The notes beneath the pieces were generated by a model. It ran no database searches. It saw nothing but the letters and a program-made list of their open reading frames with translations, and had not been told where the DNA came from. DNA of 64,000 nucleotides from Salinibacter sp. (GTDB taxonomy: Bacteria; Bacteroidota; Rhodothermia; Rhodothermales; Salinibacteraceae): assembly GCF_036626415.1 (NCBI RefSeq), contig NZ_JAZKRW010000002.1, positions 9,521-73,520 of the forward strand, read 5' to 3'. The translations under genes and the position numbers were made by a program. Shown here piece after piece: positions 5,533 to 15,950 of the stretch (position 1 is its first letter; every line of letters begins with the position of its first letter).

Positions 5533-6780
5533 TCATCCGGAGGCCGTCCCCCCGAGGGTCCCCGACTTCGCCTGCTCAATGAACGTATTCAGGCATTCTT
5601 GTGATCGGGACTCCAGAAAGTGGCCATTGACGAGAACCGTCGGGGTGCTGTCGACCCCGATCTTTACGGCCCGTTTTCTCTGCCGGAGGACCTGATCACG
5701 GTATTCGTTCTGCTCGACACGCTTGTCCAACACGTCCGGGTTCAGGCCAATCTCGTCGGCGATGGCACGGAGGTCCTTCTTCGAAATGCCGTTCGGTCCC
5801 TGTCGGGCGTACTGCGCCTCCAGCATCTCAGAAAACTTGTCGGACTGCGCCGCCACGTACAGGGCTTGAATCTCCGGAAGGGACGACCGGCGGAGCGGGA
5901 ACGGCTTGTACACGAACCGCACCTCGTCGCGGTGGGCCTCCACCACTTGCTTCATGACTTGGTGGAAGTCCTTGCAGTGGGGGCAGTTCGGGTCAAAGTA
6001 CTCAACGACCGTCACGCCGGCCTCGGTGCTGCCTTCGGTGATGTCTTGGAAGTTCACCAGTGACGCCCCCTGGTTCTCTACCGGCGTCTTCGAGTCGTCC
6101 AGTTCACACTGGGCCGACGGCGCCGCACCGGACGAAGCAGAGGCCGAGCCGGACTGCTGTGCTCGGGCGCTCATGCCATCGACGTAGACAAGATCTGCCC
6201 CAATCAGGACGACCGCAACAGCGGTGAAATAAACAAAGAGCGCAATTTGCCGTTTTGCGAGAGGTGTCGACATGGAGCCGAGGGTGGATGTTGGTGAAAA
6301 GGAAAACACGGCAACCTGTCCTGCAAACAGGAATGTCGTAATGAGGGCCGCCCCCAAACACAGGAGGCACAGGGTCTCCAGCGGACCGACCTGAAGGTAC
6401 GTAAGATATCCCGAATACAGCAGTCCGCCCGTGAGCACCCCGGTTCGGACCCCGTGCATCCATGTGCGGAGACGAGGACCGCCCCACAATATGATCCCGG
6501 TAAGCCCGGCGACCCCTGCATAAAACCCGAGGCCCCAGGTCGTGTTTGCCACGCCCAGGAGCGCATTTTCAGCCCCGGCGGCGACCGCCACACAGTCGAA
6601 GACGGACGCGCCGGAGTCAAGCGCTTCGCCCCCAAGGCAGCCGCCCCCGAAGACCCGTCCCTGCTGGATGAGCAGATGCGCGACGTCGAGAATCCCCAGC
6701 ATCGAGAGCCCAAACAGAACAGACTCCAGGGGCGGATGGTATGCCCGCGCCCGCCCAATGAGGGTTTGCGCCAGGGACAT
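5533..6780 (-). CDS. Vitamin K epoxide reductase (VKOR) domain fused to a DsbA-like thioredoxin domain
   Basis: VKOR loop cysteines (CLGG...DCVAV) and TM CxxC (LCLLCL), then a TM linker, then EYFDPNCPHCKDF and the cis-Pro motif STPTVLVNG. Confidence 0.88.
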   Translation of the reverse strand: MSLAQTLIGRARAYHPPLESVLFGLSMLGILDVAHLLIQQGRVFGGGCLGGEALDSGASVFDCVAVAAGAENALLGVANTTWGLGFYAGVAGLTGIILWGGPRLRTWMHGVRTGVLTGGLLYSGYLTYLQVGPLETLCLLCLGAALITTFLFAGQVAVFSFSPTSTLGSMSTPLAKRQIALFVYFTAVAVVLIGADLVYVDGMSARAQQSGSASASSGAAPSAQCELDDSKTPVENQGASLVNFQDITEGSTEAGVTVVEYFDPNCPHCKDFHQVMKQVVEAHRDEVRFVYKPFPLRRSSLPEIQALYVAAQSDKFSEMLEAQYARQGPNGISKKDLRAIADEIGLNPDVLDKRVEQNEYRDQVLRQRKRAVKIGVDSTPTVLVNGHFLESRSQECLNTFIEQAKSGTLGGTASG

Positions 6781-6953
6781 GTCCACGTGCCGGTTTGGAT
6801 CGGGGAGTCGCGTCACAACCCCAAAACCCTGAGCCTTCTGCTGGTTCCTCCCATTGCCACACTCGACTGCGCGACCCGGGCTCGGGCGGACCCTCAAGAA
6901 TGGCGGATGCCATGGCCTCAAATCGCCTCCAATCGAATTTCAAACCAATCCAG

Positions 6954-6982
6954 TTGCAGGTCACGGTACTGGGCAATACCCT
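6954..6982 (+). promoter_or_regulatory. Putative sigma70-type promoter of the trp leader/operon
   Basis: TTGCAG (6954-6959), 17-nt spacer, TACCCT (6977-6982), just upstream of the leader ORF. Confidence 0.5.
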
Positions 6983-6991
6983 AATACTGGT

Positions 6992-7075
6992 ATGATTGAC
7001 AAAGACAGCGTCACGTCCATGCGTTGGTGGCTCTGGCGGCCCTTCTCTCGGGTCGAGAGCCCCTGGTACGCCTGA
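6992..7075 (+). CDS. trpL: Tryptophan operon leader peptide
   Basis: MIDKDSVTSMRWWLWRPFSRVESPWYA*. Trp codons at 7025, 7028, 7034 and 7064; alternative start ATG 7019; sits directly ahead of attenuator hairpins and trpE. Confidence 0.85.
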   Translation: MIDKDSVTSMRWWLWRPFSRVESPWYA

Positions 7076-7143
7076 CGCTGTGGCCTGCCTCTCGTTTTGA
7101 ATGGCTCTCGACCCGCTGCCGACTGGTAGCGGGTTTTTGTTTT
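7029..7143 (+). promoter_or_regulatory. Transcription attenuator (1:2, 2:3 antiterminator, 3:4 terminator)
   Basis: GGCTCT 7029-7034 pairs with AGAGCC 7056-7061. CGGGTCGAGAGCC 7049-7061 is the exact reverse complement of GGCTCTCGACCCG 7103-7115, which overlaps the terminator left arm. Confidence 0.88.
7111..7143 (+). terminator. Intrinsic terminator of the trp attenuator
   Basis: ACCCGCTGCC-GACT-GGTAGCGGGT stem (one G-U pair) followed by TTTTGTTTT. Confidence 0.9.
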
Positions 7144-7166
7144 GCCCCCTGTTCCACTTCTCATAC

Positions 7167-8675
7167 ATGACGTACGACGAGTTTCGGACGCACGTAAACA
7201 CGGCTCGGGCGGACGGCCTGTCTCGCCTCGTGGTGCCGGTGCACGCCCGGCGCAGCGCCGACCTCCTCACCCCAGTTTCGGCCTACCTCACCCTGCGAGA
7301 GAATTCCTCGTACAGCTTTCTCTTCGAAAGCGTAGAGGGCGGGGAAAAGCTGGCGCGCTACTCCTTTCTGGGACGCGATCCCTACCGCATCGTGACGGGC
7401 CGGGAGTTTGGCGCAACCGTCGAAGTGGACGAGCGCCGCACCCCCGCCCCCGAAGCCAACCTTCCAGCCCCTTCCGGCTCCATCTTTGAGGTGCTGGACG
7501 CCTACCTGGACCGGTACGAGGAGGTCGAACTGCCGGACCTTCCCCGGCTGCGTGGAGGCGCGGTGGGCTACCTCGGCTACGACGCCGTCCGCCTCGTCGA
7601 AGACCTGCCGGACGCCCCCCCAGACGATCTCTCCCTCCCCGACGCGGTGTGGTGCTTCTACGACACCGTCGCGGCGTTCGACCACGTTCGTCACCAGCTG
7701 GTGCTGATGGCAAACGTCTTCGTCGACGAGGACACGGACCTCCGGGCCGCATACGACCACGCCCAGTCCCGCCTTGGCACGCTGGAGTCGGACCTCAAGC
7801 AGTCCGCTGATCCGCCCACGTCTGTCGAGTGGACGCAAGCAGAGCTCACCTCCAACGTGGAGCGGCCGGCCTTTGAAGATGCCGTCCGTACCGCCAAGGA
7901 GTACATCCAGAAGGGCGACATCTTCCAGGTCGTGCTGTCGCAGCGCTTTGCGACGCCGTTCGACGGGGACCGCTTCAACCTGTACCGGGCCCTGCGGCAG
8001 GTCAACCCGTCGCCGTACCTCTTTTACCTCGACCTCGACGACCTGGCGCTCGTGGGCTCCTCGCCGGAGGTGCTGGTGCGGGCGGAGGCGGGCACGGCCG
8101 AGGTGCTCCCGATCGCGGGCACCCGACCGCGGGGGGACGACCCGGCCGAAGACGAAGCCCTCGCCGACGAGCTGCTGAGCGACGCCAAGGAGCGCGCCGA
8201 GCACTTGATGCTGGTCGACCTGGGCCGGAATGATCTCGGGCGTGTCTGCCAGTACGACACCGTGGAGGTGGACCGCTACGCCTACATCGAACGGTACTCG
8301 CACGTCATGCACATCGTCTCGTCGGTGACCGGCACGCTCGCGCCCGACCAGAGCTCGATGGACGCCCTCGCGGCCTGTTTCCCGGCCGGAACGGTGAGCG
8401 GTGCCCCCAAGGTACGAGCGATGGAAATCATCGACGAGCTGGAGCCGTCCCGGCGCGGGGTCTACGCCGGGGCCGTCGGCTACGTCGACTTCTCGGGCAC
8501 CCTCGACACCTGCATCGCCATCCGCACCATGGTCGTGACCGACGAAACGGCGTACGTACAGGCCGGGGCCGGCATCGTTGCGGACAGCGACCCGGCCCAC
8601 GAATACGACGAAACCCGAGACAAGGCCGCCGCGCTGCGGCAGGCCCTCCGCGTGGCCTCGAACGGCCTTCTGTAA
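7167..8675 (+). CDS. trpE: Anthranilate synthase component I
   Basis: DLLTPVS, FLFESVEGGEKLARYSFLG, GDIFQVVLSQRF, NPSPY, PIAGTRPRG, EHLMLVDLGRNDLG, GTVSGAPKVRAM. Confidence 0.96.
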   Translation: MTYDEFRTHVNTARADGLSRLVVPVHARRSADLLTPVSAYLTLRENSSYSFLFESVEGGEKLARYSFLGRDPYRIVTGREFGATVEVDERRTPAPEANLPAPSGSIFEVLDAYLDRYEEVELPDLPRLRGGAVGYLGYDAVRLVEDLPDAPPDDLSLPDAVWCFYDTVAAFDHVRHQLVLMANVFVDEDTDLRAAYDHAQSRLGTLESDLKQSADPPTSVEWTQAELTSNVERPAFEDAVRTAKEYIQKGDIFQVVLSQRFATPFDGDRFNLYRALRQVNPSPYLFYLDLDDLALVGSSPEVLVRAEAGTAEVLPIAGTRPRGDDPAEDEALADELLSDAKERAEHLMLVDLGRNDLGRVCQYDTVEVDRYAYIERYSHVMHIVSSVTGTLAPDQSSMDALAACFPAGTVSGAPKVRAMEIIDELEPSRRGVYAGAVGYVDFSGTLDTCIAIRTMVVTDETAYVQAGAGIVADSDPAHEYDETRDKAAALRQALRVASNGLL

Positions 8676-8795
8676 CCCCTTGTCCTCGCTCAGTTGCGAC
8701 TGAGGAGCACTCCGCTCCAGCGGTGCGTGCTCCAAACTTCCCCCCTGAATGCCGGTATCACTAACGCTTTTCTTTCTGAATTCCCCCTCCCGGCC

Positions 8796-9275
8796 ATGCC
8801 GAACCCCATCAAAGAGGCCCTGCTGAACCGCGGTTGGGCCGGCCAGACCCTCAGCCGGTCCGAGACGGTTGACCGAATCAACCCGCTGATCCACCAGCAC
8901 ATCGAGCTGAACCACCACTACGGCGCCGCCGTCCGGTACTGTGACGATGCGCGTGTCGTGGACGTGCTGGAGCGGCTCCAAAAGACCGCCCGGACCGACG
9001 TGGGCAAGCTCTCCGAGACCGTGTTGAGCTGCGGCGGCACACCGTACAACGGCACGGACCTGTCCCCCGAAGACTTTGCGCTCGAAGGGTCGCTCGGCGA
9101 CCTCTTTGGGGAGCTGCACGGCCTCGAAACCGCGTTCAACGACGCCCTCGCCGACGAGCTCGACCTCGAACATCAGATGCGCACCCGCGGCGTGCTCCAG
9201 GCGATCAAGAGCAACAGCGAAGACCGCCTCACCGCCCTCAAAGCCCTTCAGCGCCGCATTGGTGAGTCGGCATAG
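8796..9275 (+). CDS. Ferritin-like four-helix-bundle hypothetical protein
   Basis: 159 aa helical protein with the pattern HYGAAV...LERL...KLSETVLSCGGTP...LE...ALADEL. Fold assignment is by pattern recognition only. Confidence 0.65.
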   Translation: MPNPIKEALLNRGWAGQTLSRSETVDRINPLIHQHIELNHHYGAAVRYCDDARVVDVLERLQKTARTDVGKLSETVLSCGGTPYNGTDLSPEDFALEGSLGDLFGELHGLETAFNDALADELDLEHQMRTRGVLQAIKSNSEDRLTALKALQRRIGESA

Positions 9276-9320
9276 CGACGCTGAGCACGCTCCCCTCTCT
9301 CCTACCAATCCCTTGCCCTG

Positions 9321-10355
9321 ATGGACGCTACTGAATCCGCCCCGGCCCCGGACACCGATGCAACAACTGACCCGGTGGTGGTCTCTGGCATCCAACCGTC
9401 CGGACGCCTCCACCTTGGCAACTACTTTGGGGCCCTCCGCCAGCACATCACCCTGCACCGGCAGCACGACGCCTACTACTTCATCGTGAACTACCACGCG
9501 ATGACGACGGTGCAGGACGCAGAACAGCTCCGCGAACACACCTTCAACGTCGCCCTCGACTACCTCGCGCTCGGCTTCGACCCGGACGAGGCAGCCCTCT
9601 TCGTGCAGAGCGACGTGCCGGAGGTGACCGAGCTCATGTGGATCTTCTTCAACCTCCTCCCCACGAGCACGCTTGAGAAGGGGGTCTCGTACAAGGAGAA
9701 GGTCGACGCCGGCCTTACGCCAAACGCCGGGCTCTTCAACTACCCGGTGCTCCAGGCCGCCGACATCCTCGCGTACGGCGGGTCTCTGGTGCCCGTGGGG
9801 GCGGACCAGAAGCAGAACCTCGAGATTGCCCGCGACCTGGCGCGCCGCTTCAACCACCGCTTCTGTCCCGACGACGACCCGCTCCTTCCGGTCCCGGAGC
9901 CCCACATTCTCGACGACGTGGCCGTCATTCCCGGCACCGATGGGCGCAAGATGTCGAAAAGCTACGACAACACGATCGGCATCTTCGATGAGGGGGATAC
10001 GCTGGAGGGAAAGGTGATGAACATCGTCACCGACTCGACGCCCCTCGCGGAGCCGAAGGACCCCGAGTCGTGCAACGTCTTTGCCCTCATCACCCTGTTC
10101 GCCGATGAGGAGACGCAGCAGGAGATCGCGGACAAGTACCGGGCCGGCGGGTACGGCTACGGCCACGCCAAGCAGGAACTCCACGAATTGATCGAAGACC
10201 ACTTCGCCGACGCCCGTGCCCGACGCAAAGACCTCGAGCAGCGGCCCGATTACGTCCGCGACGTTCTGCGGGCGGGAGCAGACGCGGCCCGCGCCCAAGC
10301 CAAGCCGATTCTGGAGCAGGTGCGCGACCGGGTCGGACTGATCCGCACTCGCTGA
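9321..10355 (+). CDS. trpS: Tryptophanyl-tRNA synthetase
   Basis: SGIQPSGRLHLGNYFGA (HIGH motif), YPVLQAADIL, VPVGADQKQNLE, GRKMSKSY. Confidence 0.97.
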   Translation: MDATESAPAPDTDATTDPVVVSGIQPSGRLHLGNYFGALRQHITLHRQHDAYYFIVNYHAMTTVQDAEQLREHTFNVALDYLALGFDPDEAALFVQSDVPEVTELMWIFFNLLPTSTLEKGVSYKEKVDAGLTPNAGLFNYPVLQAADILAYGGSLVPVGADQKQNLEIARDLARRFNHRFCPDDDPLLPVPEPHILDDVAVIPGTDGRKMSKSYDNTIGIFDEGDTLEGKVMNIVTDSTPLAEPKDPESCNVFALITLFADEETQQEIADKYRAGGYGYGHAKQELHELIEDHFADARARRKDLEQRPDYVRDVLRAGADAARAQAKPILEQVRDRVGLIRTR

Positions 10356-10485
10356 CGGGGGCAACCACGGGGCCTCCCCGGCCAAGGTATGCCCGCCCTC
10401 GATTCGTTCTGCTCAGCAACCAGGCCCGACTGCTGGTCCCCACGCAAAGACTCGCTCAGTTTCTCGCTCCACGCTCTCCACACCG

Positions 10486-11088
10486 ATGATTCTGGTCATC
10501 GACAATTACGACTCGTTTACCTACAACCTCGTCCACCTCGTGGGGCGCCACACGGACGACCTGGAGGTCGTGCGCAACGACGACCTCACGGTCGCCGAAG
10601 TGGCGGACCTGACCCCGGACGGCATTCTCATCTCTCCCGGGCCGGGGCATCCGTCGGAGGCCGGCATCACGGAACCGGTCATTCGGGAGCTGGGCGCCAC
10701 AACCCCCATCCTGGGCGTCTGCCTCGGGCACCAGGCCATCGGGGAGGTCTTCGGCGGGACCATCACCCAGGCCGACGAGCTGATGCACGGCAAAACGAGC
10801 CCGGTCTACCACGAGGGCACCCCTCTCTTCGAGGGCCTCGACACGTCTTTCGAGGCGACCCGGTATCACTCCCTCGTTATCGACCCGGACACGTTCCCGC
10901 ACGACGACTTGGAGGTGACGGCCACGACAGAGGAGCAGGACACGATCATGGCCCTCCGCCACCGCACCCATCCGCTGTACGGAATCCAGTTTCACCCCGA
11001 GAGCGTGATGACGCGGGCCGGGCCCACTCTTATTGGCAACTGGCTTTCGATCGCGCTGGACGAGCAGCCCCGTGCCCAAACCCCGTAG
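10486..11088 (+). CDS. trpG: Anthranilate synthase component II / glutamine amidotransferase
   Basis: VIDNYDSFTYNL, ISPGPG, LGVCLGHQ, RYHSL, QFHPES. Confidence 0.95.
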   Translation: MILVIDNYDSFTYNLVHLVGRHTDDLEVVRNDDLTVAEVADLTPDGILISPGPGHPSEAGITEPVIRELGATTPILGVCLGHQAIGEVFGGTITQADELMHGKTSPVYHEGTPLFEGLDTSFEATRYHSLVIDPDTFPHDDLEVTATTEEQDTIMALRHRTHPLYGIQFHPESVMTRAGPTLIGNWLSIALDEQPRAQTP

Positions 11089-11115
11089 CCTTTCCCCCTT
11101 CCCCTCAACTACTTT

Positions 11116-12156
11116 TTGCCCGTGAACACCTACCTCGACACCATCGCCGATGGCGACCCCCTCTCCCGAGCGGACGCCGAAGAGGTCATGGCCTCGATGA
11201 TGAACGGCTCCGCCCGCGACGAGCACATCGCCGCGCTCTTGATGGGCCTGCGCACCCGCGGCGAGACGCTGGACGAGCTGGTCGGCTTCACGAAGACCAT
11301 GCGTGAGTTTGCCGTCTCGGTAGAGACCGACGACCCCCACGCCATCGACCTCTGTGGCACCGGGGGCGACGGCGCGAGCACGTTCAACATTTCCACCACG
11401 GCCTCCTTGATCGCGGCGGGCGCCGGCGCCACGGTGGCCAAGCACGGCAACCGCTCGGTCTCCTCCCAGTCCGGCTCCGCGGACGTGCTGGAGGCGCTTG
11501 GGGTACAGATCGACCTCGAGAAGGAGGGCGTGGAGCACTGCCTCCACGAGGCCGGCATTGCCTTCCTCTTCGCCCCCTTCTTTCATCCCGCCATGCGGCA
11601 CGTGATGCCGGTGCGCAAGGCGCTCGGCGTCCGCACCTTTTTCAACATCCTGGGTCCCCTCTGCAACCCGGCCGGCGTCACCCGCCAGATCGTGGGCGCC
11701 TTCGACACGAGCACCGCGCAGACGATGGTGCGCATCCTCGCCGAGCTGGACACCGACCACGTCATCACGCTGCACGCCGACGATGGGCTGGATGAGCTCA
11801 GCGTGTCCGCCGCCACGACGCTCTTCGAATACGACGCCACGGACCAAAATCCCGTCCCACGGAGTCACGAGGTGGGCCCGGAGGCCCACGGCATGGAGCG
11901 GTCTTCAATATCTGCCCTGGAAGGCGGAACCGCCCAGCAAAACGCCTCCATTCTCCACGACATCCTGTCCGGTGAGGATCAGGGGCCCCGGCGTGACGTT
12001 GCGGTCCTGAATGCCGCCTATGCGCTTTACGTGAGCGACCAGTACGCCGACCTCGACGCGTGCCTGGAGGCCGCCACGGAGAGCATCGACGCGGGCGCCG
12101 CCCTCGAAACCCTCAAGACCCTCGCAAGCGTGTCGAAAAAGGCCAAGTCGGAGTAA
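11116..12156 (+). CDS. trpD: Anthranilate phosphoribosyltransferase
   Basis: DLCGTGGDGASTFNIST, AKHGNRSVSSQSGSADVLEALG, RTFFNILGPLCNPA, DGLDELS. Confidence 0.97.
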   Translation: MPVNTYLDTIADGDPLSRADAEEVMASMMNGSARDEHIAALLMGLRTRGETLDELVGFTKTMREFAVSVETDDPHAIDLCGTGGDGASTFNISTTASLIAAGAGATVAKHGNRSVSSQSGSADVLEALGVQIDLEKEGVEHCLHEAGIAFLFAPFFHPAMRHVMPVRKALGVRTFFNILGPLCNPAGVTRQIVGAFDTSTAQTMVRILAELDTDHVITLHADDGLDELSVSAATTLFEYDATDQNPVPRSHEVGPEAHGMERSSISALEGGTAQQNASILHDILSGEDQGPRRDVAVLNAAYALYVSDQYADLDACLEAATESIDAGAALETLKTLASVSKKAKSE

Positions 12157-12216
12157 GGCACGGGATGGCCCGCGACGGCACCCCTCGGTCTCTCTCAGTA
12201 CCGACCCATTCTCACC

Positions 12217-13029
12217 GTGAGCATTCTTGACGACATCATCGACGACACCCGCGAGCTCGTCGAGCAGCGAAAAAAAGAGACGCCAGTTTCGGAGCTCAAG
12301 GGGCGTCCGTTCTACGACGAGCGGGAGCCCCTCTCGCTCGCGACGGCCCTGAAAGAGCGCGGCCTCTCGTTCATTGCGGAGGTCAAGAAGGCCTCCCCCT
12401 CCAAAGGCCTCATTCGGGACGCGTTCGACCCCGCCGCCATCGCCCAGCAGTACACCGAGCACGACGCGGCGGCGATCAGCGTACTGACCGAGCCCCTCCA
12501 CTTTCAGGGCGCCCTGGAGCACATGGCCTGGATCCGGGCTCACGTGCCCGAGACGCCGCTCCTGCGAAAGGACTTCATCATCGATCCCTACCAGCTCGTG
12601 GAGGCGCGAGCGGTGGGGGCCGATGCGGTCTTGCTCATCGCGACGGCCCTCGACGCGGGCCGCCTCTCCGACCTGCACGCCGCCGCCACCGAGCTGGGGC
12701 TCTCCTGCCTCGTGGAGGTGTACACGGAAGAGGACCTCAACAAGATCGACTGGGACCAGGTAACAGTCCTCGGTGTCAACAATCGAGACCTCCATACCTT
12801 CGAGGTCGACATCCAAAACTCGCTCCGCATCTTTGAGCAAGCGCCAAAGGGCGTGGGCCGCGTGGCCGAGAGTGGGCTAAGCGATCCCGAGACGCTTGTG
12901 CGCCTCCGACAGGCCGGCGTGAACGGTGTCCTCATCGGGGAGCACCTCATGCGCGCGGAGCATCCCGGCCAGGCCCTCTCCGAGCTCCGCGCCCAAGGCA
13001 AAAAAATCGCTGCCCGGCAGGCCGGCTGA
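12217..13029 (+). CDS. trpC: Indole-3-glycerol phosphate synthase
   Basis: IAEVKKASPSKG, ISVLTE, LLRKDFIIDPYQ, GVNNRDL, AESG. Confidence 0.97.
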   Translation: MSILDDIIDDTRELVEQRKKETPVSELKGRPFYDEREPLSLATALKERGLSFIAEVKKASPSKGLIRDAFDPAAIAQQYTEHDAAAISVLTEPLHFQGALEHMAWIRAHVPETPLLRKDFIIDPYQLVEARAVGADAVLLIATALDAGRLSDLHAAATELGLSCLVEVYTEEDLNKIDWDQVTVLGVNNRDLHTFEVDIQNSLRIFEQAPKGVGRVAESGLSDPETLVRLRQAGVNGVLIGEHLMRAEHPGQALSELRAQGKKIAARQAG

Positions 13030-13098
13030 GCCCGACGTGTTGGCCCAGCGACGATGACCGTTGTTCCCTCCGTATGTCCCACCATCCAGTACCGCCCC

Positions 13099-13764
13099 AT
13101 GGGAGTTGAGCTCAAAGTTTGCGGCATCACAGAACTTGAGGACGCACGCTATCTGGCCGGCGCCGGGGCCGACTACCTCGGCTTTATCCAGCATGAGGAG
13201 AGCCCGCGCTATGCCCCGCCCTCCCTCGCCAGCGACATTATCGAGTGGGTGCACGGCCCCGCCCCGGTCGGGGTCTTCGTGAACGACGACGCCCCCGCCA
13301 TCAACGAGGCCGTCGAGGCCGCCGGGTTTGAGTTCGCCCAGCTTCACGGCCAGGAGCCGGCGCACGTCGTGGAGCGCGTCGACTGTCCCGTCATCAAGGC
13401 GGTCCACGTGCGTCACGACGCGGCCCCCAACCAACTGCACACCCTCTTCGAGCGCTACGAAGACGAGGTTGAGTACTTTCTGCTGGACACCCACGACTCG
13501 AGCGTGTGGGGCGGCACCGGGGAGTCGTTTAACTGGCGCCTCGCCCGGGACCTGGCCCAGGAGTATCCGGTCTTCTTGGCCGGCGGCCTCGACGCCGACA
13601 ACGTGGCCCGGGCGCTCGAAACCATGCGCCCCTTCGCCATCGACCTCTCAAGCAGCCTGGAGTCCGCCCCCGGACAGAAGAGCTTCGAGAAAATCGATGC
13701 GTTCATGGACGCCTTCCAGGCCGCGGCGGCCGAGTTGGAAGAAACCGAAACGCATGACGCTTGA
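13099..13764 (+). CDS. trpF: Phosphoribosylanthranilate isomerase
   Basis: [52 protein letters not shown]. Confidence 0.95.
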
Positions 13765-13843
13765 CCCGGACCGCCGCGCCTGTCTCGCGTAAGAGAAGAC
13801 CCCGTTACCGATCGTCATTATTGCTCCGCACGGCCTGCCTCCT

Positions 13844-15064
13844 ATGCCCCGCTCCGCCACCGAGTCTCGTCCCGACACGCTTCCCGACGCCGACGGCCAC
13901 TTTGGGCCGTACGGCGGGGCCTACGTGCCCGAAATCCTTACCCCCGTGCTCGAAGAACTCAAGGCCGCCTACAAGACCTACAAGGACGATCCGGATTTTC
14001 AGGCCGACCTCCAGGCCCTTCTCAACGACTATGCCGGTCGCCCGACGCCCCTCACCTACTGCGACCGTCTGACCGACCAGGTCGGCGGGGCCCGCATCTA
14101 TGCAAAGCGGGAGGACCTCTGCCACACTGGGGCCCACAAGATTAACAACACGCTCGGCCAGATCTTGCTGGCGACCCGCATGGGCAAGGAGCGCATCATT
14201 GCCGAGACCGGGGCCGGGCAGCACGGCGTGGCCACCGCTACGGTCTGTGCCAAGTTTGGGGTCGACTGCGTGATCTACATGGGCGCGGAGGACATGAAGC
14301 GCCAGCGCCTGAATGTGGAGCGGATGGAGCTGCTGGGCGCGGAGGTCCGGGCCGCCACCTCGGGCAGCCAAACCTTGAAGGAGGCCACCAACGAAGCGAT
14401 TCGGGACTGGGTCTCCAACCCGGACGACACGTTTTACATCATCGGCTCCGTGGTCGGCCCGCACCCGTATCCCATGATGGTGCGCAACTTTCACCGGGTA
14501 ATCGGAACCGAAACGCGCCACCAACTCCGCGAAGAGACCGGCCGGGAGACGCCGGACGCCATCGCCGCCTGCGTGGGAGGTGGCTCCAACGCGATCGGCA
14601 TCTTCCACCCGTTCCTCGACGACCCCGAGGTGCAACTACACGGGACGGAAGCGGCGGGCGGCGGCCTCAACGGCGACCATGCCGCCACCCTTGCCGAGGG
14701 CTCCCCGGGCGTCCTGCACGGAGCGATGAGCTACCTTCTGCAGGACGACGCCGGCCAGGTGAGCCTCGCCCACTCACTCTCCGCCGGCCTCGACTATCCC
14801 GGGGTGGGGCCTGAGCACGCCCACCTGCGCGACGAAGGGCGCGTCTCGTACCACCCGGTGACCGACACAGAAGCGCTGAACGGCGTCGAGTTGTTGTCTC
14901 AGACGGAGGGCATCATTCCCGCCCTCGAGACGGCCCACGCCGTGGCCCTCCTGCCCGAGCTGGCGCGGACTCTCGCCGAAGAACGAGGCAAGGACGCCGT
15001 GCTCGTCTTCAATTGCTCCGGCCGCGGCGACAAAGACATGGAAACCATTGCCGCACACCGGTAA
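13844..15064 (+). CDS. trpB: Tryptophan synthase beta chain
   Basis: [23 protein letters not shown] (PLP lysine), [31 protein letters not shown]. Confidence 0.98.
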
Positions 15065-15110
15065 ACACACGGCCCGACGCGTTTCTCTTTTTTCCTTTCT
15101 CGACCCGACA

Positions 15111-15950
15111 ATGTCCCGACTCGACCAGACGTTTGGGCCCCTGCGCGACCGCGACGAGAAGGCCTTGGGGCTCTTCCTCACGGACGGATTCCCGGCCCCG
15201 GACGCGACCGTCCCTCTTCTCCGCGCGATCGATCGTGGAGGCGCCGACTTCATTGAGCTGGGCATGCCCTTCAGCGACCCATTGGCCGAAGGACGCCCAA
15301 TCCAGCGGGCCAGCGCCCAGGCCCTCTCCCACGACGTCACGCTCGCCGATACCTTCCGGACCGCCGAGGCGTTTCGGACAGAGAGCGAAACGCCCCTGCT
15401 CCTGATGGGGTACGTAAATCCGGTGCTCAAATATGGGGTCCAGGCGTTCTGCCAGAACGCCGCAGCGGCCGGGGTGGACGGCCTCATCCTTCCGGACCTC
15501 CCCCCTGAAGAGAGTGACGCCCTCTGTGATGCGGCCGCCGCCCACGACCTGGACCTCGTGTTCCTGGTCGCCCCCAATACCTCCGACGAGCGCATGCGCA
15601 CCGTCGACGAGCGGGCCACCGGGTTCGTCTATGCCGTAAGCGTGACTGGGCTCACGGGCAGCGACCTTGCCGACGCGCCCACCGTGGACGACTACCTCGA
15701 GCATACCCGCGAGCTCGTGGACCAGAATCCCCTGCTTGTCGGCTTTGGGATCAAGTCACACGACGACGCAATGCGCCTCAGCCGGCACACGGATGGCTTT
15801 ATCGTCGGTTCAGCCCTCATCAACCGCGTGTCGGCCCTCTGGGACGCCCCCGAGCGGCCGATGCCGGAGCGTCTGGACGCAGTCGAGTCGTTCGCTCGTC
15901 ACCTCAAGTCTGGCACTCCGGCCCCTGCACTCGATCTCGATCCGGCGTAA
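15111..15950 (+). CDS. trpA: Tryptophan synthase alpha chain
   Basis: [52 protein letters not shown]. Confidence 0.97.

Follow-up and report, generated by a model that had tools for sequence, protein, structure and literature searches.

The DNA directly upstream of trpE in this Salinibacter sp. most probably acts as a ribosome-mediated (leader-peptide) transcription attenuator of the trp operon; we put the probability of this at about 85%. Support for this reading comes from the anatomy of the leader, from constrained folding and from its conservation in the genus, the order and the class, all of which agree with the classical 1:2 / 2:3 / 3:4 trp attenuator that the original prediction had proposed for this place. 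The leader possesses the sequence elements and the mutually exclusive pairings of such a switch, with the energies and the conservation given below, and we infer its transcription start, the translation of its ORF and its dependence on Trp. All positions refer to the window, i. e. the whole stretch of 64,000 nucleotides that was analyzed, and the features of the leader are:

6926 to 6946, plus strand: A/T-rich box, conserved, CCTCCAATCGAATTTCAAACC, located 8-28 nt 5' of the -35 hexamer
6954 to 6982, plus strand: promoter-like element, TTGCAG (6954-6959), 17-nt spacer, TACCCT (6977-6982)
6992 to 7075, plus strand: leader ORF (trpL-like), 27 codons, MIDKDSVTSMRWWLWRPFSRVESPWYA and stop, ATG and frame conserved in the genus
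7005 to 7081, plus strand: terminator-permissive rod, consisting of P0 (7005-7019 with 7064-7081) around the 1:2 hairpin (7026-7042 with 7050-7063)
7049 to 7115, plus strand: antiterminator 2:3, 7049-7061 with 7103-7115, 13 perfect pairs
7064 to 7066, plus strand: fourth Trp codon, outside the sensor, Trp in 1 of 21 genus members, where a stall is predicted to give the terminator
7110 to 7143, plus strand: intrinsic terminator 3:4, stem 7110-7120 with 7125-7135, loop GACT, T tract 7134-7143
7167 to 15950, plus strand: putative operon under the attenuator, trpE to trpA, identified by NCBIfam and Pfam matches

Reading of the sequence between 6700 and 7400 places the leader ORF between a start ATG at 6992 and a TGA stop codon at 7073-7075. 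The codons TGG TGG CTC TGG (7025-7036) encode W12, W13 and W15, with the regulatory Trp codons at 7025-7030 and 7034-7036. A short ORF containing RWWLW had been predicted to end 91 nt before trpE; this is exactly the gap between the end of the leader ORF and the trpE ATG at 7167, and every coordinate claimed for the ORF checks out. For comparison, the trpE upstream regions of 24 species of the same genus and of other Rhodothermales families were used, with 21 genus members being usable. The ATG and the reading frame are kept in all 21, and each of them has two to four Trp codons at codons 12-16, usually as the cluster W-W-R-W-W. The ORF comprises 21-28 codons in these species (27 or 28 in 19 of them, 26 in L020 and 21 in L022). 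All indels through the end of the Trp codons are multiples of three, and the sole single-base indel in the genus alignment lies 3' of the Trp codons, where it merely shortens the peptide. In-frame indels up to the Trp codons are what is predicted for a translated sensor. Conservation of the internal ATG at 7019 was not found in the genus alignment, hence 6992 is taken as the start. The frame-preserving indels indirectly suggest that the leader ORF is translated.

The ATG abuts the promoter-like element. The pattern TTGnnn-17/18-TAnnnT was found at the equivalent place in all 28 Rhodothermales leaders, with the ATG 6-10 nt past the -10 hexamer; a generic, stricter sigma-70 scan of the window did not call the trp promoter. 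With this geometry a transcription start 6-9 nt past the -10 hexamer would leave a 5' UTR of 0-3 nt, which is too short for a Shine-Dalgarno sequence. This suggests that the leader transcript is leaderless and starts at or a few bases before the ATG at 6992.

The RNA from 6985 to 7150 has a minimum free energy of -71.1 kcal/mol (z = -3.9), and none of 200 shuffled sequences was equally stable. In the minimum free energy fold the rod of P0 and 1:2 is seen, with a joint energy of -40.0 kcal/mol. For the 1:2 helix, the original prediction had named only segment 1 at 7029-7034 and its pairing with 7056-7061. The two hexamers, GGCTCT and AGAGCC, are indeed complementary, but the extent was underestimated, as the helix has 14 pairs (-21.2 kcal/mol) and not six. 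P0, the outer helix, joins the 5' half of the leader ORF to the region of the stop codon, with the stop codon itself included in the pairing. Segment 2, CGGGTCGAGAGCC at 7049-7061, is the exact reverse complement of 7103-7115, and the predicted perfect 13-bp antiterminator is thereby confirmed. The antiterminator duplex has an energy of -27.6 kcal/mol, the terminator -20.2 kcal/mol. When compared with shuffled sequences, the 2:3 duplex reached -34.8 versus -15.6 in the shuffles (p = 0.003). The antiterminator shares 7110-7115 with the 5' arm of the terminator. For the latter, a 10-bp stem with a U tract had been predicted at 7111-7143; the terminator scan called it at 7110-7135, with 11 pairs, the loop GACT and the tail TTTGTTTTG. 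It runs into the T tract and lies 23 nt ahead of trpE. Because the upstream VKOR/DsbA gene is divergent, this terminator is not the end of another gene.

How these elements would work together can be outlined as follows. Transcription would start at or a few bases before the ATG at 6992, and translation of the leader ORF would begin without any preceding 5' leader. With ample charged tRNA-Trp, the ribosome would pass the Trp codons at 7025-7036, cross segment 2 and reach the stop codon at 7073. Segment 2 (7049-7063) would then be covered or re-paired with segment 1. With segment 2 occupied, segment 3 would pair with segment 4 and RNA polymerase would terminate within the T tract, around 7136-7143. 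Under a shortage of charged tRNA-Trp, the ribosome would stall on the Trp codons, most effectively on the last one, thereby holding segment 1 and freeing segment 2. The free segment 2 could form the 13-bp antiterminator with segment 3, by which the base of the terminator would be lost, and transcription would proceed into trpE-orf-trpS-trpGDCFBA.

The predicted switching was studied by constrained folding of the full leader, in which all RNA up to the leading edge of the ribosome was masked. The free RNA, as well as the RNA with a ribosome at the stop codon, folded into P0, 1:2 and the full 11-bp terminator. With W15 in the A site, a 12-bp antiterminator formed and the terminator was cut down to a 6-bp remnant of its upper stem, detached from the T tract. 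Folding with the Trp-codon region blocked (W15 stall) or free thus switches the leader between antiterminator and terminator, in line with the proposed attenuation. With a tight-footprint stall at W12 or W13, the terminator was still kept in the full-length equilibrium fold. In these stalls GGCCC (7038-7042) is exposed and can retain part of segment 2, so that stalling would be most effective at the last Trp codon. In agreement with this, most relatives have extra Trp codons (15 and 16).

Transcripts without segment 4 were folded as well. With a stalled ribosome, all 11 nt of the terminator 5' arm were paired with leader positions 44-63, i. e. with the stretch directly after the Trp codons, whereas none of the 11 was paired with the ribosome at the stop codon. 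This pattern was seen across the 27 scorable leaders. In the ribosome-free transcript of the window, the equilibrium already prefers 2:3 (9 of 11 nt); default termination would therefore have to depend on 1:2/P0 being kinetically trapped or on occupancy by the ribosome. Equilibrium folding is blind to the persistence of a 1:2/P0 rod that was made before segment 4 emerges. As a control, E. coli trpL was subjected to the same tests. On the truncated transcript it showed its textbook behavior, namely 1:2 when free, 2:3 when stalled and neither at the stop codon. On the full-length transcript the terminator was kept in every state. Since the proven E. coli switch fails the full-length test, passing it is a strong but not a required result for the Salinibacter leader. 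Full-length equilibrium folding with ribosome masks is a generally unfair test, and the truncated-transcript version was used for comparison.

A fourth Trp codon had been noted just past segment 2, with the suggestion that it might add a second sensing point. The TGG is present at 7064-7066 as claimed, but this role does not hold up. The codon is Trp in this genome only, with R, M, L, F and others in the remaining genus members. A ribosome positioned with 7064 in the A site lies over segment 2. The fold predicted for this state is the full terminator, just as at the stop codon, which is the opposite of what sensing demands. A stall at this codon is therefore incapable of adding read-through, and in these models the codon appears to be neutral at most.

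The Trp codons and the helices are kept in all 21 genus species and the design, with different sequences, recurs in other Rhodothermales, in Balneolales-like relatives and in much of the phylum, which is the conservation that the original prediction had demanded of relatives. Across the genus, 85% of the cells are paired in 1:2, 90.5% in 2:3 and 99% in 3:4. As these helices are nearly invariant in sequence, covariation within the genus is thin: there are two clean compensatory changes in 2:3 (G-C to A-U in L013, C-G to U-A in L006), one terminator pair alternates between G.U, G-C and A-U, and for 2:3 the shuffle control was not significant on most measures. The P0 region is variable; 11 of its 15 pairs change on both sides within the genus, and in 16 of the 21 species the P0 duplex is stronger than in shuffled sequences (p <= 0.05).

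Comparison beyond the genus is more telling. The same design was found at 7 of 7 loci from other Rhodothermales families, e. g. MRNAVLHTAHFFGFWWWSSPGAVRR and MRHVAYHSAHYFGWWWFSTAAVGRARA; the helix sequences of these seven leaders are unrelated while their layout and overall length (146-164 nt, counted from the ATG through the T tract) are the same. We consider this recurrence across families to be a stronger argument than the covariation within the genus. By heuristic detection of an ORF plus a terminator, a Trp-run ORF with a terminator was found ahead of trpE in 7-9 of 12 further Rhodothermales loci, in 11 of 13 genomes that belong to other orders of this class (WWWP leaders) and, for the remainder of the phylum, in 13 of 25 genomes. 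The complementarity required for 2:3, between the stretch just past the Trp codons and the 5' arm of the terminator, exceeded that of shuffles (p <= 0.05) in 20 of 21 leaders from the genus, 8 of 13 from the order and 7 of 11 from the class. Among the leaders from the rest of the phylum it did so in 0 of 10, where the fixed search window may be misplaced. A scan of genome contigs with a 17-base pattern, which is too short for this purpose, returned only chance matches in unrelated high-GC genomes.

These data also bear on the possibility that the terminator and the short transcript are real and yet do not sense Trp. The region would then be a constitutive leaky terminator or a small-RNA gene, with the ORF as a side-effect and the Trp codons as a by-product of a G-rich helix (TGG within GGUGGC... 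stems). Indeed, segment 1 contains the Trp codons and requires its G-rich sequence for pairing with segment 2, and with helices that are almost invariant in the genus, a constraint on codons is inseparable there from a constraint on structure. However, Trp runs (WWW, WWxWW) upstream of trpE are found again in other families and orders and in much of the phylum, although the helix sequences there are unrelated. Moreover, the ATG and the frame are conserved, and up to the Trp codons all indels are in frame, and a position directly before trpE and the sole trpS fits Trp sensing. A leader of this kind that does not sense Trp is hence very unlikely.

The genes downstream of the attenuator are all on the plus strand with short gaps, and no terminator-like sites were found on this strand between them:

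7167-8675, plus strand: trpE (TIGR00564, 578.8 bits)
8796-9275, plus strand: conserved hypothetical gene, 159 aa, weak DUF2383 match
9321-10355, plus strand: trpS
10486-11088, plus strand: trpG
11116-12156, plus strand: trpD
12217-13029, plus strand: trpC
13054-13764, plus strand: trpF
13844-15064, plus strand: trpB
15048-15950, plus strand: trpA

This arrangement suggests co-transcription of trpE-orf-trpS-trpGDCFBA. The gene order trpE-orf-trpS is conserved in the genus and in other Rhodothermales families. The 159-aa protein encoded between trpE and trpS is kept throughout the order; 181 homologues were found, each about 160 aa long, and no source gives the protein a name other than "hypothetical".

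The start codon of trpE (ATG 7167, MTYDEF...) aligns from residue 1 with TrpE of all relatives and has no obvious Shine-Dalgarno sequence. The latter would suit a leader in which ribosome stalling does sense Trp while the output is not intrinsic termination but, for example, Rho-dependent termination or a translational effect on trpE. Yet a canonical G+C-rich hairpin with a T tract, conserved to 99%, lies 23 nt before trpE, the antiterminator overlaps this terminator exactly, and the hairpin is clear of the trpE start codon. An output other than intrinsic termination is thus even less probable than a leader that does not sense Trp.

Upstream of the promoter lies the A/T-rich box. The core, GAATTTCAAA, is identical in 19 of the 21 genus members and has variable flanks, and the box stays beside the trp promoter even where the upstream gene differs. 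In the whole genome this 10-mer occurs at only two other places, none of them at other promoters. Possibly, the box is UP-element-like or the site of a regulator. That it is the operator of a regulon was rejected, as both other copies of the core belong to an unrelated 45-nt repeat in a tRNA-gene neighbourhood. Likewise, the CCTCC within the box does not serve as the Shine-Dalgarno sequence of the divergent VKOR/DsbA gene, whose homology starts about 47 codons further in; besides, the box outlasts the change of this neighbor.

Two side observations concern these elements. The repeat of about 45 nt (…GAAAAGTTGCCCGGG.GGGG.CGAATTTCAAATGAAGAGAT…CAAGCGTT) occurs in two copies outside the window, on contigs C13 (about 9530-9600) and C103 (about 10560-10650) of genome G000. 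The copy on C13 adjoins an apparent tRNA gene and is possibly an integration-site repeat. The VKOR-DsbA fusion ORF (5533-6921, minus strand) shows homology with its relatives from near codon 48 (MSLAQ…, about 6780) and is probably annotated too long if the TTG at 6921 is taken as its start.

The box, strongly conserved beside the promoter, is what could speak for a protein or tRNA effector (TRAP-like, TrpR-like at the upstream box, or T-box-like) as the main regulator with the leader ORF being secondary, but this is the least probable of the alternatives, since the genome (94.6% complete) contains no homologue of TrpR (PF01371; positive controls in model genomes) or TRAP (PF02081; B.subtilis control positive), no T-box or other Rfam family matches the leader, and a box at this place, 5' of the -35 hexamer, could contribute to control of the promoter but is no substitute for the switch in the leader. 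In the cmscan search of 6500-7500 against 4227 families (E <= 10), only chance terminator-like matches were obtained. The Trp_leader family RF00513 was among those without a match at this threshold, and Bacteroid-trp (RF01692, gathering threshold 49 bits) did not match this region either. The RF01692 model also gave no match in 41 Rhodothermales genomes at E <= 1, while the Bacteroides thetaiotaomicron control was positive.

Starting from the attenuator, a further-reaching interpretation can be considered for the Rhodothermales trp leader as a whole. According to this, the leader would be a mini-gene without a 5' leader, onto whose 5' end the first ribosome loads directly behind RNA polymerase, the switch would serve as a homeostat of tRNA charging, and the box and P0 would tune it. 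We regard this as tentative and would not expect it to hold in full. It derives from the position of trpS: by tblastn of the whole genome no second trpS was found, and the sole copy lies inside the operon, downstream of the attenuator. Expression of this essential gene would consequently depend on read-through or on an unseen internal promoter. With the sole trpS behind the same terminator, the switch would be a closed-loop homeostat of tRNA-Trp charging, if this interpretation were true. One switch would then set the Trp supply as well as the charging enzyme, with an essential gene living on basal read-through, and the level of the latter would be tuned by the upstream box and the extra P0 helix.

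By analogy, the leader would work functionally like E. coli trpL (RF00513) while standing outside the curated sequence families. In both, the short ORF has a cluster of Trp codons overlapping segment 1, the pairings 1:2, 2:3 and 3:4 are mutually exclusive and an intrinsic terminator lies just before trpE, and they behave alike in the truncated-transcript folding test. There are also clear differences. The E. coli ORF has 14 codons as opposed to 27 here, with three Trp codons in the Salinibacter leader and up to four in its relatives. The stop codon follows segment 2 in Salinibacter, whereas it precedes segment 2 in E. coli, and P0 is an extra outer helix. The Salinibacter antiterminator is more stable than its terminator, whereas the E. 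coli switch fails the equilibrium test. Finally, unlike in E. coli, the ATG directly adjoins the promoter, which leaves no space for a Shine-Dalgarno sequence, and the genome has no TrpR. Some of these traits, namely the probable leaderless translation, P0 and the dominance of the antiterminator, are specific to the lineage, as is the sole trpS in the operon.

Bacteroid-trp is regarded as a Trp-codon leader with a terminator. It was described as a cis-regulatory RNA motif (RF01692) that precedes trp genes in the phylum to which Salinibacter also belongs (Weinberg et al. 2010, PMC2864571). WWW-type leaders with a terminator are common across the phylum and in this respect the two are alike. However, sequence and helices of Bacteroid-trp are not alignable with the Salinibacter leader, for which the RF01692 model is silent. 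In a comparative study of 2004, Vitreschak and colleagues reportedly found candidate attenuators in "Bacteroidetes/Chlorobi", so that this kind of attenuator would already be known in the wider group. A full-text search, with most subscription journals outside its scope, found no paper on a trp leader peptide or attenuator in Salinibacter or Rhodothermus.

Leaderless attenuators have precedents in other bacteria. In Sinorhizobium meliloti the attenuator transcript trpL/rnTrpL begins at the trpL ATG, i. e. its leader ORF is leaderless (PMC7298713). In contrast to the Salinibacter leader, that of S. meliloti encodes a 14-aa peptide and controls trpE(G) only, and a trans-acting role of the small RNA as well as a role of the peptide were demonstrated there. 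For Deinococcus deserti, 14 leader peptides on 5'-AUG transcripts were predicted to act in attenuation; transcription of the trpEGD leader starts 1 nt before the start codon, and some of the leaderless leader peptides control aminoacyl-tRNA synthetase genes (PMC4007540). D. deserti belongs to a different phylum, its leaders are unrelated in sequence, and their starts were mapped by dRNA-seq, whereas here the start is deduced from promoter geometry. An attenuator before a cognate tRNA synthetase is also familiar from the E. coli pheST leader (pheM), where the enzyme level follows tRNA charging. The difference is that in Salinibacter trpS is embedded in the biosynthetic operon, so that Trp synthesis and the sole gene for TrpRS would be under the control of a single switch.

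For Salinibacter and the Rhodothermales, the leader adds an uncatalogued and well-supported trp attenuator whose ORF is missed by gene callers and whose RNA goes undetected by either of the Rfam trp-leader models (RF00513, RF01692). It also suggests that lineages which are sparing in the use of Shine-Dalgarno sequences can operate the classical switch with a mini-gene that is apparently leaderless. Conceptually little is gained, as the mechanism is textbook knowledge and similar leaders are common across bacteria. In practical terms, the leader could improve annotation, seed a new RNA-family model and, for genetic work in Salinibacter or Rhodothermus, serve as a natural control element that responds to Trp.

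The genome was also scanned for the signature of such a promoter-abutting mini-gene, i. e. TTGnnn-17/18-TAnnnT, an ATG 5-10 nt later, an ORF of 8-45 codons and a strong terminator. In the 3.24 Mb of this genome (65.8% G+C) two places only were found, the trp leader and an Arg-rich leader before argG. The latter, MINALLSIAPTSRGRARRVRRPHIASTARTRAPGVR, lies outside the window on contig C14 of the same genome (L282:2655-2859, minus strand). A clear switch was not seen for it in equilibrium folding. Its Arg codons are mainly CGA or CGT, and it has a strong terminator about 20 nt ahead of argG. Arg-rich leaders with a nearly identical terminator are found ahead of argG across the genus and in other Rhodothermales families.
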